Positions 15,718 to 63,120 of a DNA stretch of 64,000 nt are shown piece after piece. The notes below the pieces were generated by a model. The model saw only the letters and a list, made by a program, of their open reading frames with translations, had not been told where the DNA came from and searched no databases. This DNA comes from a virus (Duplodnaviria > Caudoviricetes). Made by a program: the position numbers and the translations under genes. The stretch covers positions 14,347 to 78,346 of IMG/VR virus record IMGVR_UViG_3300006217_000025; one strand, 5' to 3'. The stretch's first letter is position 1. Each line of letters starts with the position of its first letter.

Positions 15718-15721
15718 ATAT

Positions 15722-15898: not shown

Positions 15899-15911
15899 AA
15901 TTTTCATAAGA

Positions 15912-15985
15912 TGGGGGAGAAGAGAGGCCTCGAACCTCTGAAACAGAAAGAAGTGATTCACAGCTATCTGTTTTACCACCAAGTT
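15912..15985 (-). pseudogene. Degenerate tRNA remnant (His GTG-like)
   Basis: T arm AGAGG-TTCGAGG-CCTCT and CCA end intact, CTGTGAA loop present; 5' acceptor strand not found. Confidence 0.4.
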
Positions 15986-15988
15986 AAA

Positions 15989-16180: not shown

Positions 16181-16212
16181 ATTTATTCTCCTAATTTGAA
16201 GTAAATATTTAA

Positions 16213-16289
16213 TGGTTGGGAAGACAGGATTCGAACCTGTGACCATCTAGTCCCAAACCAGATGCACTACCAAACTGTGCTACTTCCCA
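16213..16289 (-). tRNA. tRNA-Pro(TGG)
   Basis: TGGGAAG/CTTCCCA acceptor, TTTGGGA loop, canonical T arm. Confidence 0.92.
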
Positions 16290-16294
16290 ATAAA

Positions 16295-16370
16295 TGGCGG
16301 GCACTACAGGATTTGAACCTGTGACCTATTGATTAACAGTCAACCGCTCTGCCAACTGAGCTAAGCACCC
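16295..16370 (-). tRNA. tRNA-Asn(GTT)
   Basis: GGGTGCT/AGTGCCC acceptor, CTGTTAA loop, GCCA end. Confidence 0.92.
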
Positions 16371-41802: not shown

Positions 41803-43082
41803 AAGTGGATATTTTAATAAAAAAGATGTTTGAATATGAACGTTGGAAAGAGTTACTTGAAATTGCTTCTGAAAAAGAGTTAGATAAGGATTTAATTATC
41901 AAATTTATGAAACCAGATGAACGAAAGAAATTGGCTTATATTATTGCTTCGGATAGTTATACTATTGCTCCCCCACATATCGCTTTTATCCCAAAAGACG
42001 ATGGCACTATGAGAGAAGTATATGTAAACGAAGATTTAGATAGGATAGTATTAACTTTAATAAATAATGTTCTTTGCGAAATTTTTAAAAATAAAATTCA
42101 TCCTAAATGTGTATCATATCAAAAAGGATTAGGGACACAAATGGTAGTTGAACAAATTTCAAGAGAAATTACTCAAATGGGTATTGATAATCCTCATATA
42201 GAGCGCTGTGGTTATAAAAGTGATTTTTCTAAGTATTTTGATAATGTGTCTTTAAAAGCTATTGACAGGGTATTTAATGAGTGTGAACGGGGACTAGGTT
42301 ATGAGTATAATAAGCATCCCGTTTTTAATTTGTTGCGGAGATATTATCATCAGGATTTATATTTTAATAAAGATGGGAAATTGGGCAATAGATATCAAGG
42401 GCTCAAACAAGGGTGTGCAGTGGCTAGTTTTCTAGCAAATGTCGTTTTGTATGAATTAGATGAATTTATGTCAAACAAATATAGGATTTATTATAGATAT
42501 AGTGATGATTTAGTTGCAATCGACAAAAATACTGATGATGTTATTGATGATATCAATCGAGTTATTTGTAAATATGGCGTTACATTGAATCCTAAAAAAG
42601 TAGAACCAATCTACAAAGATGAATGGTTTAAGTTTTTAGGATTCATGATCAAAGGTAGCCAAATCACTTTATCTAAAAAACGCATCAAGAATTTTGAAAA
42701 GGAAATTAGAAAAAGAAGCGTTGATAAACGAAAATGCTCTGAAAGTAAGGCTAGATATCTAATCATGAAGTATTTATATGAAGGCGAACGGGCATGGGCA
42801 ATGAGTTGTTTGAGTTGTATTAACGTTGAATCTGATATAGCTGAAATGAATAAGTTTATTATGGATTGCATTAAGGCATGTAAAACCGGAAAGAAAAGAA
42901 TAGGGGGACTAGGAGTTGCTTATAATCTACCTGATAAAACAATTATAAGAGGCAAGGGGAAGCATGTTACCTCAAATAAGGTTAACAATGGGTATATTGA
43001 AAGATATTTGAGTGTACAGTGTCTTAGAAAAGATTTAAAGTACAATAGAGACTTATTCGATATTGTACTTAAAGGACTATAA
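41784..43082 (+). CDS. Reverse transcriptase (phage-type unknown group, UG27-like)
   Basis: IPKDDG..R, DFSKYFD, GLKQG, YRYSDD and FLGF motifs; true start probably GTG 41805. Confidence 0.9.
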   Translation: MGGYCIEVDILIKKMFEYERWKELLEIASEKELDKDLIIKFMKPDERKKLAYIIASDSYTIAPPHIAFIPKDDGTMREVYVNEDLDRIVLTLINNVLCEIFKNKIHPKCVSYQKGLGTQMVVEQISREITQMGIDNPHIERCGYKSDFSKYFDNVSLKAIDRVFNECERGLGYEYNKHPVFNLLRRYYHQDLYFNKDGKLGNRYQGLKQGCAVASFLANVVLYELDEFMSNKYRIYYRYSDDLVAIDKNTDDVIDDINRVICKYGVTLNPKKVEPIYKDEWFKFLGFMIKGSQITLSKKRIKNFEKEIRKRSVDKRKCSESKARYLIMKYLYEGERAWAMSCLSCINVESDIAEMNKFIMDCIKACKTGKKRIGGLGVAYNLPDKTIIRGKGKHVTSNKVNNGYIERYLSVQCLRKDLKYNRDLFDIVLKGL

Positions 43083-47166: not shown

Positions 47167-47448
47167 GTGAATAGTGCAGAATTTAAACATTTCAAACTTC
47201 ATGCAGACAGTACGCTAAAAAGCATGACAAAAGATGAATTGGTTAGTTATATTCATATGTTATATCACAATTGGGGTGTTGTTGATGAGAGATTGTGTAA
47301 TGGTATTGATTATAGTCGCAAACTTGATAAAGCACTAGATAAAGCGTGTGAAGAATTAGTAAGGGCTTATCCATGCGGTGTCAATAGGTGTAATACTAAT
47401 TGTCATAAAGAAAGTTGGGAAGAGTGGTTGATGAAAAATGACTATTGA
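47167..47448 (+). CDS. Hypothetical protein
   Basis: GTG start, coupled to the next gene. Confidence 0.55.
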   Translation: MNSAEFKHFKLHADSTLKSMTKDELVSYIHMLYHNWGVVDERLCNGIDYSRKLDKALDKACEELVRAYPCGVNRCNTNCHKESWEEWLMKNDY

Positions 47449-48364
47449 TGTGCTTGATAACGAGCTAATTCTGTTTGATCGATTAAATGTCATTAGAGAT
47501 GTTGTTGAAAAATATAGTGAAGACAAATTCTATATCTCTTTCAGCGGGGGCAAGGACAGTACGGTACTTCATTATTTATTTGATGAAGCATTGCCAAACA
47601 ATACAATACCTAGAGTATATTGTGATACGGGTATTGAGTACAACGATATAAAAGAATTTGTTTATGAACTGTCTAAAAATGATGATAGGTTCATCATTTT
47701 GAAGCCTAGTCAGAATGTGAAAGCCATGCTTGAAAAACATGGTTATCCATTCAAAAGTAAAGAACATAGCCATATTTTAGCGGTCTACCAAAATAGTGGT
47801 AAAACCAAAACGGTGGATAAATATTTATCAGGAATAAGGATAAAGAACGGAAAAGAAACTGAAACCTCGTTTAAGTGTCCTAAAATTCTTGCTTATCAAT
47901 TTAACCAGGATTTCAAAATTAAAGTTAGCGATAAGTGTTGTAAGAGATTTAAAAAAGAGCCATTTAAAAGCTATGAAAAGCAGAGTGGCAGAAACATCTA
48001 TATAACAGGAATGCGGAAATCAGAGGGCGGATATAGAAACAACATAAATTGCATCGTTTATGACAATGACAAGCAAGTTAAAAAATTCCACCCTTTATCA
48101 AACGTTAATGACGAATGGGAAGATTGGTACATTCAAAAAAGAGGCATACAACTTTGCAAGCTGTATTATCCACCGTTCAATTTTAAAAGAACGGGGTGCA
48201 AGGGCTGTCCGTTTTCATTAAACCTACAAGAACAATTAGAAGTAATGGCAAGGTTATTACCGAATGAAAGAAAACAATGCGAAATGATATGGAAACCGAT
48301 TTATACGGAGTACAGAAGACTTGGCTATAGACTTGCTGAAAATGAGCAAATAAAAATTTTTTAG
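47438..48364 (+). CDS. PAPS reductase-family protein
   Basis: SFSGGKDS, DTG.E, KCC and RTGCKGCPF motifs. Confidence 0.85.
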   Translation: MTIDVLDNELILFDRLNVIRDVVEKYSEDKFYISFSGGKDSTVLHYLFDEALPNNTIPRVYCDTGIEYNDIKEFVYELSKNDDRFIILKPSQNVKAMLEKHGYPFKSKEHSHILAVYQNSGKTKTVDKYLSGIRIKNGKETETSFKCPKILAYQFNQDFKIKVSDKCCKRFKKEPFKSYEKQSGRNIYITGMRKSEGGYRNNINCIVYDNDKQVKKFHPLSNVNDEWEDWYIQKRGIQLCKLYYPPFNFKRTGCKGCPFSLNLQEQLEVMARLLPNERKQCEMIWKPIYTEYRRLGYRLAENEQIKIF

Positions 48365-48377
48365 AAAGGAACTAGAG

Positions 48378-49007
48378 ATGAAAATACACAATAAAAAATT
48401 GATTCAGCCTTATTTTGATGATGTTTGGAACGGAAATAAAACATTTGAGATAAGGAAAAACGACTGTGATTATCAAATTGGGGATTTTCTAATTCTTCAT
48501 GAATTGACAAATGAAACAATACAAATAGAAGGTAAAAAATTATACAGAATTAAGGCTTTGATTGATTTTGGTGATGTAAAAGCTGGAGATTTAGGCGGTT
48601 TTATAGAAAAAGAAAGTAATTTAAGCCATCTTGGTAGCGCTTGGATATATGATGATGCTAAGGTGTATGGCAACGCTGAGGTGTATGGTAACGCTTGGAT
48701 ATATGATGACGCTGAGGTGTGTGGTAACGCTAGGGTGTGTGATGACGCTATGGTGTGTGGTAACGCTATGGTGTGTGATGATGGTGATTATGCATGTGTT
48801 AAAGGTTTTGGAACGGAATATAGAAACACCACGTTTTATAAACAGAAAAATGGAAGTGTTGGTGTGAATTGTGGGTGTTTCACTGGCACATTAGGGGAGT
48901 TTAGAAATCAGGTTAAAAAAACAAGAAAAGGGAAAATTGAAAAAGAATATTTGATGATAGCTGATTTAATAGAATATCATTTTGCAGAAGAAGGAGAGGG
49001 ATTATAA
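48378..49007 (+). CDS. Chimeric ORF: DUF3850/ASCH-like N-terminus fused to a hexapeptide (left-handed beta-helix) repeat protein
   Basis: KTFEIRKNDCDYQIGDFLILHE joined to LTNETIQIEGKKLYRIKAL...GG..E and A.VYGNA repeats. Confidence 0.7.
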   Translation: MKIHNKKLIQPYFDDVWNGNKTFEIRKNDCDYQIGDFLILHELTNETIQIEGKKLYRIKALIDFGDVKAGDLGGFIEKESNLSHLGSAWIYDDAKVYGNAEVYGNAWIYDDAEVCGNARVCDDAMVCGNAMVCDDGDYACVKGFGTEYRNTTFYKQKNGSVGVNCGCFTGTLGEFRNQVKKTRKGKIEKEYLMIADLIEYHFAEEGEGL

Positions 49008-49288
49008 TAACAAAGGAAGAGTTAGAACAATACGTGCCGTTGAAGAAATGGAGAACAGAGGCTATTAGAAATAATAGAAAAGAGGAAATTGCTATATTGG
49101 AAGAAAGAATGAAAGCCATAGAAAAGGCGATTTCAACAACATCATCTAATGTAGATGTTTATAGAGCGCTACATTACAGGTACATATTAGGGATGGAGTT
49201 AAAGGCGATTGCAAAAAAAACAAACTTCTCTATTGCGACAGTTAGCAGAAATTTGAAAAAAGGTTTAAAGATGATAAACCATGCGTAA
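49004..49288 (+). CDS. ArpU/RinA-like late transcription activator (probable ATA start)
   Basis: C-terminal HTH (RY..G..L..IA...NFS..TVSR); AAGGAGAGGG SD then ATA 49004 overlapping the upstream TAA. Confidence 0.65.
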   Translation: MITKEELEQYVPLKKWRTEAIRNNRKEEIAILEERMKAIEKAISTTSSNVDVYRALHYRYILGMELKAIAKKTNFSIATVSRNLKKGLKMINHA

Positions 49289-49305
49289 CGTTTGCATGGT
49301 ATCAT
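49272..49305 (+). promoter_or_regulatory. Putative late promoter, copy 1
   Basis: TGATAAACCATGCGTAACGTTT-N6-TATCAT; identical 22-mer at 54434. Confidence 0.65.
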
Positions 49306-49374
49306 ATAGGTGCAGTCATGGAATTGCACCTCTTTCTTTTTAATTTTATAAGGTGGATAAAATCCACCGAATAA

Positions 49375-49450
49375 GGCAGGGTGGAGCAGAAGGAAGCTTA
49401 TCAGTCTTATTAGCTGAGGGTCGCAGGTTCAAGTCCTGCCCCTGCAACCA
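49375..49450 (+). tRNA. Initiator-type (fMet body) tRNA with TAT anticodon
   Basis: G1xA72 mismatch, G2-C71, C3-G70, A11-U24, A73, CCA; anticodon arm TCAGT-CTTATTA-GCTGA; T arm GCAGG-TTCAAGT-CCTGC. Confidence 0.85.
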
Positions 49451-49501
49451 TTTAATTTACCATGCTTCATAGCATGGATTTTTTTGAAAGGAATTAAAGA
49501 A

Positions 49502-49633
49502 ATGATAGAAAAAATGTTAGCGATCAAAAGGGAAATATATACAACGGATTCATGGAAGCGTAGAAATGATTTACAGAAGCATTTAGATAGCTTAGAAAAA
49601 GAATGGTTTAAAAACAAGAAGGTGATAAAATAG
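49502..49633 (+). CDS. Small hypothetical protein
   Basis: 43 aa, GAAAGGA SD; stop overlaps the terS ATA. Confidence 0.5.
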   Translation: MIEKMLAIKREIYTTDSWKRRNDLQKHLDSLEKEWFKNKKVIK

Positions 49634-50007
49634 CTAGACCAAAAAAAGAAATTGACATTAAACAATTTGAAAAATTATGTTCATTGCAATGTACACAAGC
49701 GGAGATATGTGCGTTTTTTGATATTTCAGAGAAAACACTGCAATCATGGTGCAAAAAAACGTATAATGACGGTTTTTCCCAAGTATTCGCCAAAAAGAGA
49801 GGATTAGGAAAGATATCGCTAAGAAGAATGCAATGGCAACTTGCTGAAAGAAATGCCTCGATGGCAATTTTTCTAGGTAAGCAGTTCTTGGGGCAAACGG
49901 ATAAAGTTGAGCAAAGCGTTATTGATGTAACGAAGATAAATGAATTAAATGCGTCTGTGCTTGATAATATTGCGCCTACAAGAGCGATAGAGGATTTTGA
50001 AGAATAA
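49630..50007 (+). CDS. Terminase small subunit (probable ATA start)
   Basis: ATA 49630 after AAGGTG gives (M)ARPKKEID.KQFEKLC.LQCT..EIC...SLRR.QW...AIFLGKQ.LGQ.D. Confidence 0.8.
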   Translation: MARPKKEIDIKQFEKLCSLQCTQAEICAFFDISEKTLQSWCKKTYNDGFSQVFAKKRGLGKISLRRMQWQLAERNASMAIFLGKQFLGQTDKVEQSVIDVTKINELNASVLDNIAPTRAIEDFEE

Positions 50008-51311
50008 ATATACCTTGTGCGTTCAATGAGCGTCAGATGAATTATTTAAGGCGAACACTTACATCATGGCTAAATGTAGCAGAAGGCGGGAAGCGTGGGT
50101 CTAAAAACGTTCTAAACACCTATGCTTTCTGTATCAATCTTGAAACACACCCTGACAAAATACATTTAATCGCAGGTGTATCAAATGCCACGGCTAGAAT
50201 CAATATTGCGGAATGTGATGGATACGGTATTTTCAATTATTATGAGGGAAGATATCGAGAGGGGAAATTTCAAGAAAAAACGTGTATTTACGTTCAGACA
50301 AAAACAGGTGAAAAGATTATACTTGTTGCTGGTGGAAGAAAGAACGGTGACGAAGCTTATATCAAAGGTTTCACAATAGGCAGTGCATATATAACAGAGG
50401 CTAATGAATGTCATGAGAATTTTCTGAAAGAAGTATTTGATAGAACGCTGTCATCTTCTAATAGAAAGATATTTCACGATTTAAATCCAAAAGAAGAGCA
50501 TCATTTCTATTATACTGAAATATTAGCCTATCATGAGAAAATGCAAAAAGAAGATGATGATTACGGCTATAATTATGGGCATTTCACGATTGCCGATAAT
50601 ATGAGTATTTCTAATAAACGATTAAGGGAAATTTTGAAAACTTATGACAAAAATACAGTTTGGTACAAACGTGATATTTTAGGCGATAGAGCAGTAGCCG
50701 AAGGGTTAATCTTCCGTTATTTTGCAAATGATCCTGAACCATACTTGATTGATGAGAAAAAAATCGAAAAAACATTCAGTCATATTATTATTGGTATTGA
50801 CTTTGGCGATAGTGGGTCAAAATATGTGTTTACAGCTATGGGTTTTAAAAATGGTTGGAAAGACTTGATAGCATTAGAAGAACATGAGATAGAAAAAAGC
50901 AATGGGATAGATGCTAAAAGACTTTGTAACGAGTTTATTTTGTTTTATAGACGTGTTTTAGAAAAATGGGGGTATGTAGAATGGATATTCTGTGATAGTG
51001 CTTCTAACACCCTTATAAATACGCTTAGAAGTGCAGCAAAAGAAAACAATCTAAGATACAGCAATATTGCAGGTGTAGTCAAGAACGAAGTAAGGGAAAG
51101 ACCGCAAATGGTTGACTTGCTACTTTGTACAGATAGATTGAAAATCAATCGAAAATGCAAAGGAATAATTAAAGCATTGTCAAGGCTGAAATGGGATGAG
51201 AAAGAGCCAGACATTCCGGAAGATTTAAACATTGATAATATCAATGATATTTGGGATAGCTTCTGTTACACGTTCATTACACATACGAAATATATAGAAT
51301 TAAAACGATAG
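50004..51311 (+). CDS. Terminase large subunit (probable ATA start)
   Basis: EGGKRGSK Walker A, ITEAN Walker B, GIDFG nuclease motif; ATAA overlap with terS stop. Confidence 0.88.
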   Translation: MNIPCAFNERQMNYLRRTLTSWLNVAEGGKRGSKNVLNTYAFCINLETHPDKIHLIAGVSNATARINIAECDGYGIFNYYEGRYREGKFQEKTCIYVQTKTGEKIILVAGGRKNGDEAYIKGFTIGSAYITEANECHENFLKEVFDRTLSSSNRKIFHDLNPKEEHHFYYTEILAYHEKMQKEDDDYGYNYGHFTIADNMSISNKRLREILKTYDKNTVWYKRDILGDRAVAEGLIFRYFANDPEPYLIDEKKIEKTFSHIIIGIDFGDSGSKYVFTAMGFKNGWKDLIALEEHEIEKSNGIDAKRLCNEFILFYRRVLEKWGYVEWIFCDSASNTLINTLRSAAKENNLRYSNIAGVVKNEVRERPQMVDLLLCTDRLKINRKCKGIIKALSRLKWDEKEPDIPEDLNIDNINDIWDSFCYTFITHTKYIELKR

Positions 51312-51324
51312 ACGGGGTGATAGA

Positions 51325-52713
51325 ATACAAAATTTTATAACAAGCTTTTTAGCTAAAAAAGGATATAGAGTTGATATAAATGCGCTAGATAGTATTATTG
51401 ACGTAACAAATAAATGGTACACAAATGAGGCATTGCCTTTTCATAAGGCGATGACAGTCAATGGCGAAAGATATGATTTAGAAAGAACGAACTTTGCTAA
51501 AAGACTATGTGCTGATGACGCCAATTTAATAGAATGTGCAGAAATAAACGCTAGTCAAAGCAATGAAATAAACGATCTCATCAATAAAGTGCTAGACGAC
51601 AATAATTTCAAGGTGATGTATCGAAAACAAGTTGAGCAAATGTCGGCAAATGGAACTGTCGGTGCTTATATCAGAATAGACAATGCAGACATATTAGATG
51701 ATGGTACTTTTATCAATGGAGAAATCATTATAGAATATTGTGATACATTAAATATCGTTCCATTAACAGTTATTCACAATCAGATAATCGAATGTGCATT
51801 CACAGGTCATGATATCGAGGATAATAAAGACGTTTACACCTTAATTATTTTCAAAATAGAAAACGGGCTATACAAATGCGAGAACTATCAATTTGATGAA
51901 AACGGCAGAGAGCTTGTCAACAGAACACAGATTGTAGAGTTAAGCGATGTCAAGCCTTTTGCGATTATGCGAACAGCTGAAAATAATAACATGAAAATGA
52001 AAGGATACGGCTATCCGAAATTATGGAGTGCTATTCCTTGCCTTGAAATCATTGACCTTGTTATGACGATGTGGAAAAGAGATTTAGACAAGTCTGATAA
52101 AATTGTTCTTATAAATGAAGAACTGTGCAAACGGAATGAGGAAGGTGAAGTCATACCACCAACCAAAGAAATGAAAAAAATCTTCGTTCAAGTCGGAAGC
52201 GAGAAATTGCCCGAGGAAAAAGCGATGTATCAAGAATATAATCCAACTGTTCGTATTGATGAAATTGAAAGGTCGTTAGAGCTGTCCTTGTCAATGCTCT
52301 CGATGTCGTTCGGATTCGGTACAAAAAAATATACTTTTGAGCAAGGCAGAATATTGACCGCTACCGAATATGTAGGCGATAAACAAGACAGCATGCAGGA
52401 AATCAACAAACAAAGAGATGAGAGCATACAGTATATCAAAGATATAGTTCATGCAATTGTCTATTTCTACAATATCAATAATCAGTCTAATATCATGGTT
52501 GATGAAATTAAAGTTGACTTTGATGACAGCTACATCGAAGATAAACAAGCTATGGCTAAAAGGATGAGAGAAGACGCTATTGCTTTTGAAAGCAATACAC
52601 TTAAATTGTGGTACTTGATGAAGCAGTATAATCTTACAGAAGAAGAAGCTCAAAAAATCATCTTGGAGATAGAATCAAATTTCCAAGATGATGGCGATGG
52701 TGATGAAGAATGA
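51325..52713 (+). CDS. Portal protein, SPP1 gp6-like (probable ATA start)
   Basis: Follows terL; GGGGTG SD then ATA 51325; G...Y.F...TATE...FDDS..ED motifs. Confidence 0.82.
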   Translation: MQNFITSFLAKKGYRVDINALDSIIDVTNKWYTNEALPFHKAMTVNGERYDLERTNFAKRLCADDANLIECAEINASQSNEINDLINKVLDDNNFKVMYRKQVEQMSANGTVGAYIRIDNADILDDGTFINGEIIIEYCDTLNIVPLTVIHNQIIECAFTGHDIEDNKDVYTLIIFKIENGLYKCENYQFDENGRELVNRTQIVELSDVKPFAIMRTAENNNMKMKGYGYPKLWSAIPCLEIIDLVMTMWKRDLDKSDKIVLINEELCKRNEEGEVIPPTKEMKKIFVQVGSEKLPEEKAMYQEYNPTVRIDEIERSLELSLSMLSMSFGFGTKKYTFEQGRILTATEYVGDKQDSMQEINKQRDESIQYIKDIVHAIVYFYNINNQSNIMVDEIKVDFDDSYIEDKQAMAKRMREDAIAFESNTLKLWYLMKQYNLTEEEAQKIILEIESNFQDDGDGDEE

Positions 52714-53774
52714 GAGATGAAGAAAATCTTGAAGAAAATGCACAAGAACTTATTGACCTAGCACAGTTGTTTGAAATGGCTTTGTTTGTCGGCATGCTAG
52801 GAGAGATAAAAAAATGTTTGAATAGCCAATCCACAAAAAGCGAATGTATTTATCGTATTAGAAAAATGGTAGCAGCGAAAACAAAACAATTTGCAAAAGA
52901 TACTAGTCAAGGCATTAAAGAAGTGGTTAAAAAGGGCAATGACATCAGTTATAAAGGATTCAGAAAGAAAGTAAAGAAGATGGTTAAATATGATGAGATT
53001 ACCGAAATTTATGCTAAAAAAACACAGAAAGAATTTAAGAAATACCTCAAAACAAGAGGTATAGCATACGGTAATCAAACACCTACACAGTTCTTTACTA
53101 GCTTTATCGAAAAACATTTAGATGATGTATTAGAGGGTAGAATGCCGATTGAAAAGGCGATAGAGAGTGCTATAACGGAAATGTCTAAGAACGGAATAAG
53201 ACTTGTCCAATATGATAGCGGTGTTAGAAAAAACGTAGATGTTTGGGTACGTCAACAGATGATATATGCACAAAGGGAAAGCGTGCGTGATTTAACTCTG
53301 AAAATCGCCAAAGAAAATGGTGTAACTATATTCGAATTTGATGCTCATGCAAATGCCCGACCTAGCCATCAAAGGTGGCAGGGGAAAAGGTTTGACATAA
53401 CCGGCAAGGAATATCCGACAAAAAAGCAGTTATGCAATGATGAAGATGAAGATTATGGCTGTCTGCATAGGTTCTATCCTGTGTGGGACAAAAAAGACAA
53501 GTATTCTTATTCAAAAGATCAATTGAAAAATATCAATACACAGCCGTTTGAATGGAATGGCAAATTGTATGATGGATATGAAGCTAAACAGAAAGCTCGT
53601 TCAATGGAACGTGATATACGTCAATTAAAGCGTGAAAAGAATTTAAGAGAGCTTGAAGGCTTAGACACAACAGATATAAAAGCTCGTCTAAGGGTCAAAA
53701 ACAAGCAATATAGAAGCTTTATGGAAAGATTTGGTACTTATCCAAGAAATAACAGAATACGAGTTGTTAAATAA
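52710..53774 (+). CDS. Minor capsid protein (Phage_min_cap2-like)
   Basis: H..ARPSH..WQGK, GC.H.F.P and Q.AR.MER.IR..KR motifs. Confidence 0.8.
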   Translation: MRDEENLEENAQELIDLAQLFEMALFVGMLGEIKKCLNSQSTKSECIYRIRKMVAAKTKQFAKDTSQGIKEVVKKGNDISYKGFRKKVKKMVKYDEITEIYAKKTQKEFKKYLKTRGIAYGNQTPTQFFTSFIEKHLDDVLEGRMPIEKAIESAITEMSKNGIRLVQYDSGVRKNVDVWVRQQMIYAQRESVRDLTLKIAKENGVTIFEFDAHANARPSHQRWQGKRFDITGKEYPTKKQLCNDEDEDYGCLHRFYPVWDKKDKYSYSKDQLKNINTQPFEWNGKLYDGYEAKQKARSMERDIRQLKREKNLRELEGLDTTDIKARLRVKNKQYRSFMERFGTYPRNNRIRVVK

Positions 53775-53836
53775 AATTTTAGCATATTTTAGTTTTTGAT
53801 TATTGATTTTATATATTTAAAGCTTTATAATGGTAG

Positions 53837-53942
53837 TAGCTAAGGGGTTGCTCCCCCTTAACTACTTAAAGCTTTACAGCTTTTCTATGAGGCTTATAAA
53901 CCTTTGAAGATTGGTAGTTCTGCAAGGTTTCAAGCCTTTTTT
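53837..53942 (+). ncRNA. Putative antisense sRNA
   Basis: TTGATT-17-TATAAT (53803-53831), hairpin TAAGGGG/CCCCTTA, terminator AAGG/CCTT+T; overlaps the 3' half of the minus-strand small ORF. Confidence 0.5.
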
Positions 53943-53978
53943 GTTGCACCATATCAGGTACATATTCCGTAAGTTCAT
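53874..53978 (-). CDS. 34-aa basic peptide (moron)
   Basis: GGAGGTG SD, TTGACA-17-TATAAT (54036-54008); MNLRNMYLIWCNKKGLKPCRTTNLQRFISLIEKL. Confidence 0.6.
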   Translation of the reverse strand: MNLRNMYLIWCNKKGLKPCRTTNLQRFISLIEKL

Positions 53979-54131
53979 TTTATCACCTCCCTCACCTTAC
54001 ATATACTATTATAAAGCATTTGCTTAATTTTGTCAATAGTTTAGTTAATTATTTGCTATATTTTTTTAATTAAAGTATTGATTTAATTAAATGATTGCTT
54101 TATAATTATATGTGAAAGTGAGGTTACATAT

Positions 54132-54344
54132 ATGGCAACAGAAAAACAAATAAAAGCGGTTATTGCACAAGCTTCTACAAATCAAAAGAAACTAGCTGAA
54201 AGTATCGGTATGACCCCTGCAAACTTTAATCAAAAATTAAAAAGATGTACTTTTACCGATGAAGAATTAAAGGAGATTGCAAACGAACTCGGAGCAACTT
54301 ATCATTGTTATTTTGAATTTGAAGATGGTACTAAAATATATTAG
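54132..54344 (+). CDS. Cro/CI-type HTH protein
   Basis: QKKLAESIGMTPANFNQKLKR HTH; own promoter TTGATT-17-TATAAT and downstream terminator. Confidence 0.8.
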   Translation: MATEKQIKAVIAQASTNQKKLAESIGMTPANFNQKLKRCTFTDEELKEIANELGATYHCYFEFEDGTKIY

Positions 54345-54433
54345 TAAAAGAGCCTTATCCCAATTTAAAGGGATAGAGCTTTTTTAGTTTAATGCTTAAC
54401 TTTAGCCTATTTTTTTGTTTTTTCTTTTAAAGT

Positions 54434-54467
54434 TGATAAACCATGCGTAACGTTTTCAAGTTAAAAT
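54434..54467 (+). promoter_or_regulatory. Putative late promoter, copy 2
   Basis: TGATAAACCATGCGTAACGTTT-N6-TAAAAT upstream of the scaffold gene. Confidence 0.65.
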
Positions 54468-54541
54468 AAGTGTAGTGAGAAATCACTTCCCTTATCAGCG
54501 TAGAAGATACGCTTTATAAGAAACTTTATAGGAGGATTTAT

Positions 54542-55111
54542 ATGAAAAACATTAGTGAAATTTTAAAATCAAATGGAGTTGAAGTATCTGATGAACAGTT
54601 AAAAGCTATCAATAGCGAAGTAGTGGAAAACTACAGAACAATCACTGATTACAACAAGCAGAAAGATAAACTTGAACTATCTGAAAAGAAGTACAAAGAT
54701 ACCCAAAAAGCATTTGAAGATTTTAAACAAGGATTTGAAGGAGTGGACATTGCAGAACTCAAAGGAAAAGTCGACACCTTGACGAACACGATTGAAACTC
54801 AAAAGGGGGATTATGAAAAAAAGATTGCGAAAATGAACCTAGATTCTTTGTTAAATGAAATCGCAAAAGAAAAAGGGTGCAAGGATTATGAGCTTGCACA
54901 AAAAATGATTGATTATGAAGCTCTGTTATCTTCTAAAAATCAAAAAGAAGATATTGAAAAGCAATTTGCCACTTTAAAAGAAAACAAGCCTATTTTGTTT
55001 GAGGCAGAAAAGCCAAATGGTAAAAAAGGCGGGGTCATTCTCCCTAGCGGCGGAAATGGCGAAGAAGTACAAACAGATTTGAAAAGTGCATTAAAAGATT
55101 ATTACAAATAG
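54542..55111 (+). CDS. Scaffolding protein (GP20-like)
   Basis: Coiled coil, between minor capsid and MCP; AGGAGG SD. Confidence 0.75.
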   Translation: MKNISEILKSNGVEVSDEQLKAINSEVVENYRTITDYNKQKDKLELSEKKYKDTQKAFEDFKQGFEGVDIAELKGKVDTLTNTIETQKGDYEKKIAKMNLDSLLNEIAKEKGCKDYELAQKMIDYEALLSSKNQKEDIEKQFATLKENKPILFEAEKPNGKKGGVILPSGGNGEEVQTDLKSALKDYYK

Positions 55112-55124
55112 AGGGGGAATATAA

Positions 55125-56129
55125 ATAGCAATTACATTAGAAGAAGCTAAGGTTGGTATGACTAACAAAGTCGACCAAAATGTGATTGATGAGTTTAGAA
55201 GAAGCTCGTTATTATTAGATATGCTGACATTTGATGATACGATTTCACCAGGCACAGGTGGTAGCACATTAGGATATTCATACATCATGCTGAAAACACC
55301 TAGCACTGTTGCAACACGTAAAATCAATACAGAATACGCACCGGGAGAAGCCAAGAGAGAAGAAAAGACTTCAAAAGCTATTATTCTTGGTGGGACATTT
55401 GAAGTCGATCGTGTTATTGCGGAAACAGATGGTGCAGTAGATGAAGTACAGTTCCAATTACAAGAAAAAGTAAAGGCAGGGTCAAACTACTTCCATAATT
55501 TAGTTATCAATGGAACAAAAGAAACAAGTGGTGATGGCTATGTTACAGAAACATTTGACGGCTTGAAAAAGCTTTTGTCAGGTTCTGAAACCGAAATCAC
55601 GAGTGAATCAGATTTATCAACATCAGCATTAGTAGATACAAATTACAATTCATTCTTAGACGAATTGGATGCGTTCTTATCGACATTGGATGGAAAACCT
55701 AGCATTTTACTGATGAATAACAAAATGCTGACAAAAGTAAGAGCTTGTGCAAGACGTGCGGGCTATTATGACAGAACTAAAAATGATTTTGGACAGTTTG
55801 TGGAAACATACAATGGCATTCCGATGATGGATACAGGTGTGTATTATGACGGTACAAGCACAAAAGATGTTATTGAAACAACTGCACCAAGTTCAAGCGC
55901 ATATGGTGAAACTTCTATTTATGCGGTTTCGTTAGGCTTAAATGCTTTTCATGGAATTTCAATTGACGGTTCAAAGATGTTAAGAACATACTTGCCAAAC
56001 TTTAAAGAACCAGGTGCTGTAAAAAAAGGTGAAGTTGAATTGATTGCCGGTGTAGTGTTGAAAAACTCCAACAAGGCAGGCGTTTTAAAAGGTATCAAGA
56101 TTTCGCCAAAATTGACAGCTGCTAAATAA
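55125..56129 (+). CDS. Major capsid protein (probable ATA start)
   Basis: GAGGGGG SD then ATA 55125 gives (M)AITLEEAKVGMTNKVDQ.VIDEFRR. Confidence 0.85.
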   Translation: MAITLEEAKVGMTNKVDQNVIDEFRRSSLLLDMLTFDDTISPGTGGSTLGYSYIMLKTPSTVATRKINTEYAPGEAKREEKTSKAIILGGTFEVDRVIAETDGAVDEVQFQLQEKVKAGSNYFHNLVINGTKETSGDGYVTETFDGLKKLLSGSETEITSESDLSTSALVDTNYNSFLDELDAFLSTLDGKPSILLMNNKMLTKVRACARRAGYYDRTKNDFGQFVETYNGIPMMDTGVYYDGTSTKDVIETTAPSSSAYGETSIYAVSLGLNAFHGISIDGSKMLRTYLPNFKEPGAVKKGEVELIAGVVLKNSNKAGVLKGIKISPKLTAAK

Positions 56130-56148
56130 ATGAAAAGGGGAGTTAGAT

Positions 56149-56502
56149 ATGAACAATTTAGTTGATTGGGAGTATTACAACTCCCATTTTCCTAATCTAA
56201 GCGAAGAAGATTTTAAAAAGACTTTTTATAAGGCTGAAAGAGTAGTTTTAAAGCGTGTTTCTAAAAACGTGGACAATTTATCAGAAGAAGAAAAAACAAG
56301 TGTCAAAGATTGTATATGCGATATTATCAATAATGTTTTCGGAACAAACAATGCTAAAGGTTTAGCAAGTGTTTCAAATGATGGATATTCAGAATCCTAT
56401 GTCAATATGACAGAAGAACAGCAGGAACACAGAATAGAAAGCATTATCAAAATGTGGCTAAATGACTTAGGAATTTTGAAAGGACATTTTATAGCTTTTT
56501 GA
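56149..56502 (+). CDS. Head-tail connector protein
   Basis: After MCP; SVSNDGYSESY motif. Confidence 0.7.
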   Translation: MNNLVDWEYYNSHFPNLSEEDFKKTFYKAERVVLKRVSKNVDNLSEEEKTSVKDCICDIINNVFGTNNAKGLASVSNDGYSESYVNMTEEQQEHRIESIIKMWLNDLGILKGHFIAF

Positions 56503-56918
56503 TGTTCAACGATACGATTACCATATACAATCACTACTATGATAAATTGACGAAACTAGACAGATGGAATAGAACGATTTTAAAAGGCGTTATGTGGCGT
56601 CAAACAACTACTAAGACAGTGTCTAGCAATAAGATACAAATTGACGATAGTATATCTATCACTATACCGCATAGAAGCGGTTATTTAAGCCCACAGAAGT
56701 ATATTCAAATGCCTAATGATAAAATGTCTGATTATTGGACAATCAACGCTGAAAACAATGCGGACATCATTGTTTTAGGGGAAATCAATCAAGACTTGAC
56801 AGATAGTTATACGTTAAGAGAACTAAGAAAAGACTATGATAATGTTGTAACTGTGATGGCGGTCAGCGATAATTCACGTGTAGATCATTTAAAACATTGG
56901 AAGGTAACTGCTAAATAA
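56499..56918 (+). CDS. Head closure/minor capsid protein
   Basis: M.N..ITIYN...HW.V pattern; position. Confidence 0.65.
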   Translation: MMFNDTITIYNHYYDKLTKLDRWNRTILKGVMWRQTTTKTVSSNKIQIDDSISITIPHRSGYLSPQKYIQMPNDKMSDYWTINAENNADIIVLGEINQDLTDSYTLRELRKDYDNVVTVMAVSDNSRVDHLKHWKVTAK

Positions 56919-57301
56919 GTAATGTAGAAATCAGATTCGAAATTCATGGCTTAAAAAGAATAATGCAGGACCGAGGCTTGCAGGTTGGCGGGCGTGTTCA
57001 GAAATATATTGACAATGAAGTTATCAGATTGATGGCATCTTACACGCCAAAAGAAAGCGGAGCATTGATTGACAGTGCCGAGAAATTAACAGATATCGGC
57101 AGTGGTGAAGTCAAACAAGGCGGTAAATCAGTGCCTTATGCTAGGAAATTGTATTATTATGAAAAATCACCGGGTGCAAGAGGCGTGAGATGGTCAGGAG
57201 GAGCGCCAAGAGGCTCATATTGGTTTGAACGAATGAAAAATGAAGGTGGAGCTAAAGCTATCTTGCGAGGTGCAATCAGAGAGGCGGGTGCTAAAAGATG
57301 A
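56915..57301 (+). CDS. Minor capsid/neck protein (probable ATA start)
   Basis: Y.P..SG.L...PYARKLYY...G..WFERMK; ATAA overlap at 56915. Confidence 0.7.
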   Translation: MSNVEIRFEIHGLKRIMQDRGLQVGGRVQKYIDNEVIRLMASYTPKESGALIDSAEKLTDIGSGEVKQGGKSVPYARKLYYYEKSPGARGVRWSGGAPRGSYWFERMKNEGGAKAILRGAIREAGAKR

Positions 57302-57714
57302 CGGTAGCACAAGCAATCAAGGATTGGCTCTATAATTTTCCAAAGTTGGATATTGACGAAAGGATAAGCACAGAACTTCTTCCAGCTGAAGCGGTGGCTT
57401 ATGCTTTATCTAAAAGCCCAAATAACATTGTAGAACAATTTGTGGATGGAAGTGAAAAAAGAACAGAATACTATACTTTTTTTGCAAGACAGTACACACA
57501 AATTGAAACAGAGAGAAATAGCAATGATGAATTTCTTGAAGAATTTGGAGAATGGGTCAATGAAAGAAACTTTAATGGGGATTTGCCAATCTTGGACAAT
57601 AACAGATATTGCGATAATATATCAGTTTCAAGCGGTTTTTATCTTTTTGAAACAGAAGAAAATCAAGGTATCTACTCATTTACAATCGAAATTATTTATC
57701 GGAAGGAGAGATAG
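57298..57714 (+). CDS. Tail terminator-like protein
   Basis: ATGA coupling; position. Confidence 0.6.
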   Translation: MTVAQAIKDWLYNFPKLDIDERISTELLPAEAVAYALSKSPNNIVEQFVDGSEKRTEYYTFFARQYTQIETERNSNDEFLEEFGEWVNERNFNGDLPILDNNRYCDNISVSSGFYLFETEENQGIYSFTIEIIYRKER

Positions 57715-57716
57715 AA

Positions 57717-58226
57717 ATAGAAGAAAAGTTTAAATCAACAACAGGAACAGAAGTAGCTAATGGATTAACCGTTAAAAAATATATGATTGGCTTGTTTCTT
57801 CAAATTGAAGATGTTTATAAGCGAATTAAAAAATCAACAACTCTTGAAATTGCGGTTGAAGCCAATACCGAAGAGCAAGACTTCATTGCGGATAAAACGC
57901 CGACAGAGTTATTGAAAAATTATGGGGTTTCATTAGCACAAGACTTAGCAATGATTAAAGGTGAAGAAGATTTTGAATTTATTTGGGAGAAGTTCTATAA
58001 CGCTATTCCAAACAATGAAGAAGTGAAAACAAAATGTATGATCGTGTTTATGTTTGACGGTGATAAAACCACAGGCTACAAGGCGTGGGAAACAGAAGCT
58101 AAAATCACTTTCGAAAACTTGAACGGTGTTGATTCAAAAATTAACTTCACAATCAATTTTGGCGATATTGAAAAAGGTATCGCTACAATGACAGATAATG
58201 TACCTACATTTACTAAAGGAGAATAG
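57717..58226 (+). CDS. Major tail (tube) protein (probable ATA start)
   Basis: GGAAGGAG SD then ATA 57717; position before the chaperones. Confidence 0.7.
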   Translation: MEEKFKSTTGTEVANGLTVKKYMIGLFLQIEDVYKRIKKSTTLEIAVEANTEEQDFIADKTPTELLKNYGVSLAQDLAMIKGEEDFEFIWEKFYNAIPNNEEVKTKCMIVFMFDGDKTTGYKAWETEAKITFENLNGVDSKINFTINFGDIEKGIATMTDNVPTFTKGE

Positions 58227-58231
58227 GAAGA

Positions 58232-58600
58232 ATGGCAACTTTATTTTATAACGGAAAAAGATATGATTTACCCAAGAAAACAATGGCGATTGTTGAAAAA
58301 GAGGATTTAATGCATACTAAATCAGCTTCATTAGTAGAAGCATATCAAAAACAATTCGATTATATCAAGGCATTATTTTCGGAAGAAGTGATGAATGATA
58401 TTTTTGGAACATCTGATTTAGATGAAATTGATATGACGGAATTGACTTTAGTTTGCAACATGGTTCATAGTGCCTATATGCAGAAAATCGTAGAACATCA
58501 GAAAAAAGAAAGTGAAATGATGGCAAATAATAAGGCACTTGAAAAAATTATCAGTGTGGGAAAATCAGTAGAAAAAATGATGGAAATTAAAAATAAATGA
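58232..58600 (+). CDS. Tail assembly chaperone
   Basis: Between tube and TMP. Confidence 0.55.
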   Translation: MATLFYNGKRYDLPKKTMAIVEKEDLMHTKSASLVEAYQKQFDYIKALFSEEVMNDIFGTSDLDEIDMTELTLVCNMVHSAYMQKIVEHQKKESEMMANNKALEKIISVGKSVEKMMEIKNK

Positions 58601-59148
58601 TTGATTTAAGAAAAAAAGGCTTACCTGATACTGTCTTAACGATAGATGGTAAGCCTGTTAAACTAAATACGGATTTTCGAGCATGGATTCAGTTTTGGGT
58701 AGATTTACAAAATGATGAAAATGATAGGGATATATCTTATCTTTTCGTAAACGAAGCCCCAAACATTGATGACTATATATTATACCAATTACAAATGTTT
58801 TTATACAATCCCTCTGAAACGCCAAAAAACGATGAATATGCAAGCGAAAAGATACTAGATTATGTGCTAGATGGAGAATATATATTCTCGGCTCTGTACG
58901 CCGTTTATGGCATTGATATAACTGAAATGGATATGCATTGGCATAAGTTTCAAGCACTGTGCAATAACGTTATCGGAGATAGTACGTTATGGGGATATGC
59001 AAAGTCAATGCGAGGATATACAAAGCCCTCTAAGTCTGATACTTTTGAAAAACAAAATGCGAGGGCTAAAGAAAGATGGTCATTCCCGATTAAATTGACT
59101 GATGAGGAATTAAGATTAAAGAATGAATTTGATGATTATTTTGGATAG
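58597..59148 (+). CDS. Gp15-like tail chaperone
   Basis: I.TDFR.W...D...I.SA....YGID....MHWHKF.AL pattern. Confidence 0.7.
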   Translation: MIDLRKKGLPDTVLTIDGKPVKLNTDFRAWIQFWVDLQNDENDRDISYLFVNEAPNIDDYILYQLQMFLYNPSETPKNDEYASEKILDYVLDGEYIFSALYAVYGIDITEMDMHWHKFQALCNNVIGDSTLWGYAKSMRGYTKPSKSDTFEKQNARAKERWSFPIKLTDEELRLKNEFDDYFG

Positions 59149-59162
59149 GTGGTGGTTCATGA

Positions 59163-61217
59163 ATACCTGATGGAAGCTTAGTATTTGATACAAAAATTGA
59201 TTCATCTAAATTAAAAAAAGGATTACAAGATATAAGTAGTGAAACAAAGGTAACTAAACAAGATACCGAACAGATGAATGACAGTTTAAAAAAAATAGAT
59301 AAAATATCTTTTGAAAATATCAAGGAAAATCTAAAAAATACTGCTGATGGTGTTAAAGATGTATTAACGCAATCAATAGAATCAAGAACAGGTTTAACAG
59401 GATTAGAAGATAAACTTGCGCAGATAGTTCCAAGTGGTAAATTTCTAGCGGTTTCTACTGCCATAGGTGCTATCGGAATTGCTTCTGTTAATTCGGCTTC
59501 ACAAATTGAAGTTGCAATGAGAAGATTTCAAGTACAAACAGGTATTGCAAACAATGAACTAGGGTTATATGAAGAACTTATGTTGTCCATATATCGTGGA
59601 AATTATGGGGAATCTATTGAAGATGTAGCTGATAGTATGGGTAAAGTGAAGCAGCAATTTGATAATTTAGATACCAATGAATTTCAAGATATCGTTGAAA
59701 ACGCATTAACGCTTCGTGATACCTTTGATATGGATGTTAACGAAACACTTAGAGGAACAAAGCAGTTAATGGAACAGTTTGGGATAAGTGGTTCGGAAGC
59801 TATGGATTTGATTGCTAGTGGTGCTCAGAATGGTTTAAATTATACAGATGAACTAGGGGATAATATTGCTGAATATGCTGGAAAATTTGCTCAAGCTGGG
59901 TATAGTTCAGAAGAATATTTTCAACTTTTAAAAAATGGGACAGAAGGCGGAGCATATAATCTTGATAAAATAAACGATGCCATTAACGAAGTAACGACTA
60001 GATTAGCAGATGGAACTATTGAAGAAAACCTTGAATTGTTTTCTAGTAGGACAGCCAATGTATTCAATGCATGGAAAGAAGGTAAAGCTACACAAAAAGA
60101 AGTTATAAATAGCATTATAAACGATATTTCGTCGTGCACAAATGAACAAGAGAAATTGACAATGGCAGCTACAGCCTTTGGTACAATGGGCGAAGATTCA
60201 AACGCTAAGTTTGTTGAATCGTTATTACCTGTTGGTGATACTTTCAAAGACATTGAAGGTACAATGAATGATGTCAAAGAAACAGCATCAAGTGGATTAG
60301 GTGCTTCATTGGAATCATTGAAAAGAAGTTTTGAAACTTTGTTAGTACCGTTAGGAGAATTATTTATTCCTGTGTTGGTTAAAATTATTGATTTCTTATC
60401 TTGGATTATTAGTCTTATCAGTGATGTGATAAGTATTGTTGCAGGATGGGTGATAAATTGGGAGGAAAGTTTAGCTTTTCTTCAAGAATTATGGGACACA
60501 TTTGCACAGTGGTTTGATGAAGGGGTTAAGGCTGTTGTAGATGGATTTACTAAAGATTTGCAAGGATTATTAGATTGGTTTGTTAATACATTCGGTCCGA
60601 TACTAGTGGATATATTTAAAATGGTATCAAATATATTTGGTGGAATGGTAAATGGAGTTTTAGGATATGCTAAAACGTGGCTTAATGGAATAAAGAATAT
60701 TATTAATAATATTATGGGAATTTTCAACGGTATAATCACATTTATTAAGGGTGTTTTCACGGGAAATTGGAAGCAAGCATGGAATGGCGTTAAACAAATT
60801 TTTAGCAACATTGTAAGTGGGTTTGTTAATATTATTAAAACACCAATCAATGCAATGATTGACCTTGTCAATGGCTTTATAGGTGGATTAAACAATATTA
60901 AAATACCTGATTGGGTTCCATTGGTTGGTGGTAAGGGATTAAGCATACCTACTATCCCTAAACTTGAAAGAGGCGGTATCTTGAAAAAAGGACAGGTCGG
61001 ATTATTAGAAGGTAATGGAGCGGAAGCAGTTGTACCACTTGACAGAAATAAGGCATGGATTAGAGCAGTTGCTAAGGATATGGCGTTTATTATGCCTGAA
61101 AGTACAAGAAATTCGTACAATCAAACCAATAACTTCTATACACCAGTTGAAACTCCTGATAAGGTCGCAAGAGCGTTGAGATTGCAACAACGATACGGAT
61201 TGGCAGGTGCTAAATAA
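59163..61217 (+). CDS. Tape measure protein (probable ATA start)
   Basis: AGGTGGTGG SD then ATA 59163 gives (M)PDGSLVFDTKID; helical repeats; IP.L..GGI C-terminus. Confidence 0.85.
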   Translation: MPDGSLVFDTKIDSSKLKKGLQDISSETKVTKQDTEQMNDSLKKIDKISFENIKENLKNTADGVKDVLTQSIESRTGLTGLEDKLAQIVPSGKFLAVSTAIGAIGIASVNSASQIEVAMRRFQVQTGIANNELGLYEELMLSIYRGNYGESIEDVADSMGKVKQQFDNLDTNEFQDIVENALTLRDTFDMDVNETLRGTKQLMEQFGISGSEAMDLIASGAQNGLNYTDELGDNIAEYAGKFAQAGYSSEEYFQLLKNGTEGGAYNLDKINDAINEVTTRLADGTIEENLELFSSRTANVFNAWKEGKATQKEVINSIINDISSCTNEQEKLTMAATAFGTMGEDSNAKFVESLLPVGDTFKDIEGTMNDVKETASSGLGASLESLKRSFETLLVPLGELFIPVLVKIIDFLSWIISLISDVISIVAGWVINWEESLAFLQELWDTFAQWFDEGVKAVVDGFTKDLQGLLDWFVNTFGPILVDIFKMVSNIFGGMVNGVLGYAKTWLNGIKNIINNIMGIFNGIITFIKGVFTGNWKQAWNGVKQIFSNIVSGFVNIIKTPINAMIDLVNGFIGGLNNIKIPDWVPLVGGKGLSIPTIPKLERGGILKKGQVGLLEGNGAEAVVPLDRNKAWIRAVAKDMAFIMPESTRNSYNQTNNFYTPVETPDKVARALRLQQRYGLAGAK

Positions 61218-62074: not shown

Positions 62075-63106
62075 ATAGAGTTTAAAGCACTGGACGAAAA
62101 ATTAAATCTTGTTTCCCTATTATCTCCCACGAATGTTCAATGGAACAGAAAATACTATGAGGCAGGAAATTTTGTGATTGAGATATCAGCTAATCAATAT
62201 TTAACTGATATGGCATATATTTATTGTTCAGAAAGAGCAGAGGTAGGAATGGTACAAAAGGTTTCACGAGAAGAAACGGGTAATGGTAAAATGGTTCAGT
62301 TAAGTGGCTTCTTTCTTGAAAAAAAGCTAGATGATAAAATTGTTTATCCCACTTTTTATGGCAGTGGAGAAATCACAGCAGTGCTAAGGCGTATGATAGA
62401 AACTTATAAAGAAGATATCGCTATAGAGATTCAATTAGCACGTGATACAGGCTCTAAGGTTGATTTTCAAGCAACTGGTGACGAATTAAGCAAGAAAGTA
62501 TATGAAGTTCTACATACTCAAGAAATGAGCTATAGAGTAACATATGACTATTTGAATAATAAATTGCTTCTAATGTTTTATAAAGGCGAGGATAAGACAC
62601 AAGATAGTGATAGCGATAGCTTTATTACTTTTTCAACAAGTTGGCATAATATCCAAAATTCGATAGTCGATGTAGATCATTCGAATTATAAGAACTTCTT
62701 TATCGTGGCAGGCATAGGAGAAGCCGAAGAACGTATAACAGTTGAAGTTGATTTATCAAATGGCGGTTACAAGAAAAAATTATTTGTCGATTCAAGAAAT
62801 ACTCAATATGATTCAAAAGAACAAACGCTTGAACAGTATAAACTAGAGCTTAGACAACAAGGATTGGAAAAAGCATTGGATTATGAGATTATAGAGAATG
62901 TGTCATTTACAGTCATTCCAAGTGGATATAAATATCTTGAGGATTATGATCTAGGAACGAAATGCGATGTAATGATAGATGATATAGGTATGTCATTTCA
63001 AACACGCATTATTGCGATATATGAAGTTTTTAAAGAAGGAAAGCATGAAATAGAATTAGAAGTTGGAAATCAAATCAAATCCAACTATCAAACATTGAGA
63101 ATATAG
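62075..63106 (+). CDS. Tail tip/hub protein (ReqiPepy6 gp37-like; probable ATA start)
   Basis: GGGGG SD then ATA 62075; QWNRKYYEAG.F, AG.GE..ER and DYDLG motifs. Confidence 0.72.
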   Translation: MEFKALDEKLNLVSLLSPTNVQWNRKYYEAGNFVIEISANQYLTDMAYIYCSERAEVGMVQKVSREETGNGKMVQLSGFFLEKKLDDKIVYPTFYGSGEITAVLRRMIETYKEDIAIEIQLARDTGSKVDFQATGDELSKKVYEVLHTQEMSYRVTYDYLNNKLLLMFYKGEDKTQDSDSDSFITFSTSWHNIQNSIVDVDHSNYKNFFIVAGIGEAEERITVEVDLSNGGYKKKLFVDSRNTQYDSKEQTLEQYKLELRQQGLEKALDYEIIENVSFTVIPSGYKYLEDYDLGTKCDVMIDDIGMSFQTRIIAIYEVFKEGKHEIELEVGNQIKSNYQTLRI

Positions 63107-63120
63107 AAAGGAGAATGTTA

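Follow-up and report, generated by a model that had tools for sequence, protein, structure and literature searches.

A conserved phage tRNA with initiator features and a UAU anticodon, and its association with ATA start codons in late genes of gut phages

Could a phage encode an initiator tRNA of its own and begin its proteins at a start codon of its own? This question is raised by a tRNA gene with a UAU anticodon in a 64,000-nucleotide stretch of viral DNA (the window; positions 14,347 to 78,346 of IMG/VR record IMGVR_UViG_3300006217_000025), near which a series of late genes appear to start at ATA. Few features of bacterial translation are as constant as the use of AUG, GUG, and UUG via a single initiator tRNA(CAU). 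An initial annotation of the locus had proposed that the phage supplies an initiator matching the ATA starts of its late genes, while warning that the tRNA might be weak or non-functional.

ARAGORN called a 76-nt tRNA(UAU) at 49375-49450 (+ strand), and the Rfam tRNA model scored the same segment at 48.6 bits (gathering score 29). Reading of its sequence places an unpaired G1 opposite A72 at the acceptor end, followed by G2-C71 and C3-G70, with A73 and an encoded CCA; the D stem consists of G10.U25, A11-U24, G12-C23, and C13-G22, the anticodon stem of U27-A43, C28-G42, A29-U41, G30-C40, and U31.G39, and the anticodon loop CUUAUUA puts a U at position 37. The initiator-type body with a UAU anticodon described by the initial annotation (1x72 mismatch, G2-C71, C3-G70, A11-U24, and A73) is thus present in every point. 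The tRNA is 74% identical to the E. coli initiator metZ (sequence taken from NC_000913.3 for the alignment) and its identity to an elongator-type tRNA(CAU) of the same window is 47%. The 1-72 mismatch and an R11:Y24 pair are the elements recognized by the formyltransferase (PMC9976931), and three G-C pairs in the anticodon stem are a near-universal initiator mark that is checked by IF3 (PMC9723500). All three of these G-C pairs had been regarded as lost; this holds for 29-41 (A-U) and 31-39 (U.G) but not for 30-40, where G30-C40 is kept. This middle pair is both sufficient and essential in E. coli, and au/GC/gu anticodon stems are natural in mycoplasmas (PMC5389676).

Relatives of this tRNA were searched for in IMG/VR and gut metagenome contigs with a pattern composed of the anticodon arm, the T loop, and the 3' end, which imposed no constraint on positions 70-71; a stricter first pattern had retrieved no copies beyond the window's own phage. 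Look-ups guided by the portal gene added the tRNA loci L004, L006, L032, L034, L036, and L038, among which L006 is a contig of the bacterial assembly Amedibacillus sp. YH-ame6 (Erysipelotrichaceae, a lineage close to the mollicutes) and L032 carries a tRNA divergent enough to be missed by the search pattern. Two further candidates were rejected as chance matches, namely the sole match of a genome contig scan (L013), which is not a tRNA, and the sole addition by a looser loop pattern in viral contigs (L039). Altogether, at least 13 distinct variants of the UAU initiator-type tRNA were found in gut phage contigs, and the UAU anticodon is common to all of them. In an alignment of 11 distinct sequences (L034, L036, and L038 were found later and lie outside it), cloverleaf pairing is seen in 93.9% of cells, with compensatory changes in 15 of 21 pairs; none of 500 shuffles matched this covariation, and slid controls paired in 41-52%. 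Besides the anticodon, G2-C71, C3-G70, A73, G30-C40, U31.G39, and U37 are invariant in all 11 variants. Pair 1-72 is formed in none of the 11, base 1 being G, C, or A, while one further variant outside the alignment has a weak A1-U72 pair. A11-U24 is found in 10 of 11, the exception being L021, which has an aberrant D arm and no ARAGORN call and was retained as a flagged outlier. Pair 29-41 varies freely with covariation (G-C in six variants, A-U in four, and U-A in one), and with 31-39 being U.G throughout, three consecutive G-C pairs are found in no variant. Judged by this pattern of sequence change, the UAU tRNA is real and under selection, its initiator marks being kept while the stems vary. 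The fear that lost G-C pairs make it weak or non-functional is largely answered by the invariance of G30-C40, given the role of this pair in E. coli (PMC5389676).

By a stop-to-stop ORF scan combined with Shine-Dalgarno (SD) scoring, nine late genes of the window were assigned an ATA start (49007, 49630, 50004, 51325, 55125, 56915, 57717, 59163, and 62075), all on the + strand. In each of them the frame opens at or just after the preceding gene, an SD lies 5-9 nt before the ATA (strong in all except the large terminase gene), and the nearest downstream ATG, GTG, or TTG is 9-37 codons further on and has no SD. In seven of the nine, i.e., the genes for the small terminase subunit, portal, capsid, and tape measure and those at 56915, 57717, and 62075, PHROG profile matches start 5' of the first canonical start. 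The series begins with a small sigma-70 region-4-like late regulator (49007..49288; PHROG 36/79/1740 and Pfam Sigma70_r4_2), whose start is formed by SD GAAGGAGAG + ATA (-14.9 kcal/mol; ATA 49004 is also possible), the first canonical start (GTG 49034) having no SD. The small terminase subunit TerS (49630..50007; PHROG 309/606) is matched from residue 4, its first canonical start, TTG 49684, being residue 19, and it is followed by the large subunit TerL (50004..51311), whose SD is weaker (-5.9). The portal protein (51325..52713; PHROG 533, with the match beginning before the first canonical start) has SD GGGGTGAT + ATA, and the major capsid protein (55125..56129; PHROG 212) is matched from residue 2. 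The ATA of a head-tail or minor head protein (56915..57301; PHROG 556) overlaps the upstream stop (ATAA), with an in-frame TAA immediately 5' and the first ATG, without SD, 16 codons on. A protein at the tail-tube position (57717..58226; PHROG 3099) starts with SD GGAAGGAGAG + ATA (-12.7), the profile match beginning earlier than the first ATG (57783), which has no SD. The tape measure protein (59163..61217) starts with SD AGGTGGTG + ATA (-15.3) and has profile matches from residues 11-12, with the first ATG 37 codons on; finally, the ATA of a minor tail protein (62075..63106; PHROG 538, matched from residue 5) directly follows the upstream TAA.

ATA is thus used by about half of this phage's late genes. 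About ten others have canonical starts (52710, 54132, 54542, 56149, 56502, 57298, 58232, 58597, 61217, and 63115). Ten ATA genes had initially been counted; nine of them stand, and the tenth, 63121, is ambiguous versus ATG 63115. That ATG lies only about 1-3 nt past its SD and ATA 63121 has ideal spacing, and a tenth ATA start may be present here. The early genes (30-48.4 kb) have canonical starts, with two ambiguous cases, ATA 41799, which ties with GTG 41805, and ATA 46579, which stands directly before ATG 46582. Under table 11 the late reading frames are uninterrupted, with no in-frame stops for a suppressor tRNA, and the unusual codon is the start. When the ATA starts of the window and of L004-L038 are taken together, more than half have GCN as the second codon.

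Comparison of orthologues indicates that these ATA codons occupy the position of ordinary start codons. For the capsid, TerS, TerL, portal, and 62075 genes, the aligned codon is canonical (ATG or GTG) in tRNA-less relatives. The capsid gene starts ATA GCA ATT ACA TTA in the window and ATG GCT ATT ACA TTA in L031 (81% identical), and L030 likewise has ATG, then GCx ATT ACA TTA; for TerS, the ATA GCT AGA CCA of the window corresponds to ATG in L007 and GTG in L031, each before GCT AGA CCx AAA. TerL reads ATA AAT ATA CCT in the window and ATG AAT CAG CCT in the tRNA-less L007, and its start is also ATG in the tRNA-bearing L006 (ATG AAT ATA CCA) and L032. The portal start is ATG in the tRNA-less L030 and L031. 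At 62075, ATA GAG TTT AAA GCA of the window is matched by ATG GAA TTC AAG GCA in L004, and the orthologues in the tRNA-less L007 and L031 have ATG as well. Conversely, Dit starts with ATG in the window and with ATA in L004 (80% identity), and the ATA start of the tape measure gene is shared by L004, L006, L032, L034, L036, and L038. Since tRNA-bearing phages vary in which of their genes start at ATA, the ATG-to-ATA switch takes place gene by gene. In a large protein database, full-length portal homologues (about 463 aa) begin M-x-x-F..KKGY at the ATA codon of the window, and many close portal relatives are called 10-55 residues short, as expected of a gene finder at a non-canonical start. The nearest portal among GenBank phages is 47% identical, and a megablast of 49000-52000 against GenBank phages gave no match.

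The initial annotation had suggested that relatives be surveyed for joint occurrence of the tRNA and ATA starts, and its core reading came through this survey. Wherever the portal gene lacks a canonical start, the tRNA is present (6 of 6 informative cases: the window, L004, L006, L032, L034, and L036), including L032, L034, and L036, which were picked blind from truncated gene calls and all proved to be tRNA-bearing; where starts are canonical throughout, it is absent (4 of 4: L007, L030, L031, and L037). L038 bears the tRNA and starts its portal gene with ATG but its capsid and tape measure genes with ATA, and L035 has ATA at 4 of 14 starts, in available sequence that does not cover the tRNA region. 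ATA starts were then scored by a rule that demands an SD of -7 kcal/mol or lower and neither a nearby canonical codon nor one within 2 kcal/mol. Under this rule, SD + ATA wins in 37 of 105 late genes and in 0 of 124 early genes of eight non-redundant tRNA-bearing phages, as against 1 of 46 late and 2 of 33 early genes in tRNA-less controls (Fisher p = 5e-15 for late vs early genes of tRNA-bearing phages and 3e-6 vs control late genes), where the counts, like those of the -1 base below, pool related phages, so that genes are not independent events, the direction being uniform in every locus. The best of the other 57 sense codons wins in 14 genes under the same rule, and the second phage present on the same record has 1 ATA-type start among 33. 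Considering that ATA makes up only about 2.4% of internal codons (about 24 per 1000) and yet is found at late but not early starts, chance can be excluded. Per 1000 internal codons, tRNA-bearing phages use ATA 10-28 times and controls 9-23 times, early and late genes being equal, which rules out codon compensation as the role of the tRNA. The idea of a phage-supplied initiator that matches the ATA starts of late genes is thus supported both by co-occurrence and by the gene-by-gene switches of start codons.

The base preceding the start codon provides a further link between the tRNA and the ATA starts. A is found at position -1 of 50 of 59 ATA starts (85%) and of 85 of 179 ATG starts (47%) of the same phages (p = 3e-7), while T precedes 3% of ATA and 30% of ATG starts; in the window alone, the values for A are 9 of 9 and 20 of 41, respectively (p = 0.006). 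In-frame TGA or TAA at -3 to -1 precedes 19 of the 59 ATA starts and about 5% of ATG starts, which confounds the -1 signal. [quoted passage not shown] Taken together with the invariance of U37 and the excess of A at -1, this suggests that starts may be signalled by a quadruplet, A-AUA, with U37 and A(-1) as the fourth pair. U37 had been suspected of being a defect; its invariance and its match to the A excess speak against this.

Terminator-like hairpins with T-runs flank the tRNA, one (49308..49331, +) between it and the regulator gene and the other (49460..49477, +) directly 3' of it. In most relatives, the tRNA likewise lies between two hairpins with T-runs, with the regulator gene before the first and the TerS gene after the second. 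The statement that the tRNA lies just upstream of the TerS gene is right as to order, although a 43-codon ORF (49502..49633, +) intervenes, which starts with ATG and whose TAG stop overlaps the ATA of the TerS gene (ATAG). In L038, the UAU tRNA (3454-3528) is found between SSB and ParB genes and not before the TerS gene, and its position is therefore not fixed. A late promoter assumed at 49272 was not recovered: the promoter scan detected no sigma-70-like site there or directly before the tRNA, and several relatives show only -10-like A/T boxes. Upstream of the tRNA, about half of the phages have a regulator gene that begins with ATA (ATA in L018, L015, L025, and probably L004; ATG in L006, L032, and L022). 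With an ATA-started regulator, the tRNA would have to be made first, yet the promoter scan found no promoter for it. The phage is present in mouse-gut metagenomes of about ten studies, and contigs of two RNA libraries cover 48763-63998 of a strain that is about 3% diverged, although contigs cannot show transcription, the tRNA level, or transcript ends. Among the differences listed for this strain (to 50117), none falls in the tRNA or at ATA 49630 and 50004. Integrase or repressor domains were not found in ten window ORFs scanned between 24 and 33 kb, and the lock on late genes in the lysogen considered in the initial annotation thus finds no support.

On the strength of these comparisons, we consider it highly probable that the phage encodes an initiator tRNA that has exchanged its CAU anticodon for UAU and decodes AUA as a start codon. 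The tRNA at 49375-49450 would read the AUA starts of late genes in the ribosomal P site, passing the P-site checks through G30-C40. As the formyltransferase elements in its acceptor and D stems are kept, it would probably be formylated. Charging would probably be with isoleucine by IleRS, putting (formyl-)Ile at the N-terminus of the proteins. Ile, Val, and Phe anticodon-mutant initiators were made in the 1990s, and mutants of this kind accept the amino acid that their new anticodon specifies. Isoleucine is also suggested by the need of MetRS for C34 and by its dependence on the CAU anticodon (PMC9976931). An AUA start is disfavoured by IF3 (PMC9723500), and the host fMet-tRNA is expected to read AUA poorly, which would make late translation dependent on the phage tRNA. 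U37 would pair with the A that precedes most ATA starts and thus give a four-base A-AUA contact. Features of the tRNA itself that count against the proposed initiator function are the absence of a three-G-C anticodon stem (31-39 always U.G, 29-41 varying) and the pyrimidine at position 37, which is unusual for a tRNA. As to purpose, we favour, speculatively and with the stop-codon recoding of gut phages as a model (PMC9523058, PMC10879173), a gate on late genes at the level of translation; evasion of defences directed at the host initiator, such as those of the VapC or AtaT type, is possible and equally a matter of speculation. A fully orthogonal channel, with A-AUA as its signal, (formyl-)Ile at the N-terminus, the tRNA as master late switch (suggested by the late regulator itself often being ATA-started), and gene-by-gene ATG-to-ATA evolution, appears to us rather doubtful as a whole.

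Could the tRNA instead be an ordinary elongator tRNA-Ile(UAU) that aids AUA decoding in an AT-rich phage, with the ATA starts being read weakly by the host fMet-tRNA? Elongator tRNAs-Ile(UAU) do exist in some bacteria, e.g., Mycoplasma mobile, which favours this idea, as do the abundance of internal ATA and the tRNA-Ile label that ARAGORN derived from the anticodon. We nevertheless regard it as very unlikely, considering that position 1 varies among the 11 aligned variants without ever pairing with 72 (a mismatch that keeps initiators from elongation), that A11-U24, G2-C71, and C3-G70 are conserved, and that position 37 is U versus the A of elongators reading ANN codons. The features expected of such an elongator, i.e., a paired 1-72, a purine at 37 with t6A, and use driven by internal AUA codons, were all found wanting, internal ATA use depending neither on the presence of the tRNA nor on whether genes are early or late. 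Moreover, the most abundant virion proteins would then hang on a start that IF3 disfavours (PMC9723500).

Another reading takes the ATA codons as sites of termination-reinitiation or as deliberately weak starts, and the tRNA as a decoy or replacement against tRNA-targeting defences. A third of the ATA starts directly follow an in-frame stop, several overlapping an upstream stop (ATAA at 56915, ATAG at 49630), which leaves some room for a contribution of reinitiation, and phage tRNAs that evade nucleases by anticodon-loop changes have been published (PMC10264068). On the other hand, relatives that lack the tRNA but share the gene order and the tight junctions show 0-1 ATA starts of this kind, ATA is also used without upstream translation (e.g., in the TerS genes of L004, L006, and L032 right after the terminator hairpin), the upstream genes do not end at the in-frame stops that precede 55125 and 59163, and the anticodon exactly matches the unusual start codon in every variant; as a full account, we give this reading little chance. 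Least credible of all is the assumption of a decaying copy of a host initiator together with ATA codons that arose as annotation or assembly artefacts. The loss of two of three anticodon-stem G-C pairs is all that speaks for it, and it is already contradicted by the covariation and the co-occurrence: at least 13 distinct variants combine compensatory changes in the stems with functional positions that are invariant, the same ATA positions recur in independent assemblies from many studies, and the diverged strain is unchanged in the tRNA and at the two ATA codons within the differences listed.

With the bacterial tRNA-fMet (E. coli metZ/W/V), the phage tRNA shares the 1x72 mismatch with A72, G2-C71, C3-G70, A11-U24, A73, G30-C40, and the T-arm sequence. 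It differs in having UAU and not the universal CAU, U37 and not A37, and no more than one or two of the three G-C pairs in the anticodon stem, with U.G at 31-39, and in being phage-encoded and paired with ATA start codons. The unconventional initiators of mycoplasmas and alpha-proteobacteria likewise keep only the middle G30-C40 between weak flanking pairs, but they retain CAU and read AUG, and the U.G at 31-39 of the phage tRNA reverses the purine-pyrimidine order of their G.U (PMC5389676). Engineered anticodon-mutant initiators (amber, i-tRNA(AAC)) resemble the phage tRNA in having an initiator body, a complementary non-AUG start, and an orthogonal channel, and usually initiate with the amino acid of the new anticodon (bioRxiv 10.1101/2021.05.25.445580). 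They are laboratory constructs, whereas the phage tRNA is natural, conserved, and tied to about a third to half of the late genes. Our literature search found such engineered forms and no natural conserved non-CAU initiator with matching start codons. Stop-codon recoding in gut phages also involves a phage tRNA, a codon of late genes, and genes that gene finders mis-call (PMC9523058, PMC10879173, PMC11210395); a codon concentrated in late genes together with a matching tRNA is what was found here as well (37/105 vs 0/124, and 1/46 without the tRNA). However, such recoding acts at elongation and termination on in-frame stops, while the UAU tRNA would act at initiation on a sense codon. As for quadruplet pairing, the natural pair in E. 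coli is A37/U(-1) with a modest effect, and the predicted U37/A(-1) pairing of the phages appears to be fixed (PMC10018350).

If the proposed function is true, start-codon identity would be reassignable in nature, and these phages would own a private start codon, a counterpart of stop-codon recoding, and with it a way to switch late genes at the level of translation, independently of transcription. It would also explain mis-annotation, with the portal, capsid, tape measure, and other proteins truncated by 10-55 codons, provide ready-made orthogonal initiator parts for synthetic biology, and make the U37/A(-1) link a natural test of the quadruplet pairing model.

Several other features of the record deserve mention. 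Window positions 1-24500 (- strand), corresponding to record bases 1-38900, belong to a second, unrelated phage with a portal gene (7517-8914), a large terminase gene (9055-11130), an exonuclease, and a cluster of eight tRNAs (14556-16370). Two packaging modules therefore stand back to back in the 78-kb record, which may be a chimeric assembly or two joined elements. The tRNA calls at 14556-14629 and 15646-15720 (-) of the second phage are one with an AAU anticodon (with an unusual A34) and a tRNA(CAU) without encoded CCA, respectively, the latter not being reported by Rfam at the gathering score. The early region of the phage with ATA starts contains a reverse transcriptase (41826-43079, +; Pfam RVT_1, 1.5e-18), for which a search of 38-64 kb revealed no template/variable repeat pair. 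At 47438-48377, contigs from two of four runs (X1 and X3) join 47437 to 48378, implying that those strains are without the PAPS-reductase-domain gene. An 18-nt tandem repeat at 48638-48799 (+), with six registers, encodes a beta-solenoid repeat in a DUF3850/ASCH protein (48378-49007), and contigs of other strains, from RNA libraries as well as from DNA, have register slips at this site. The early region of the Amedibacillus relative (L006) encodes an RtcB RNA ligase (1235-2419), which may have a function in tRNA repair.
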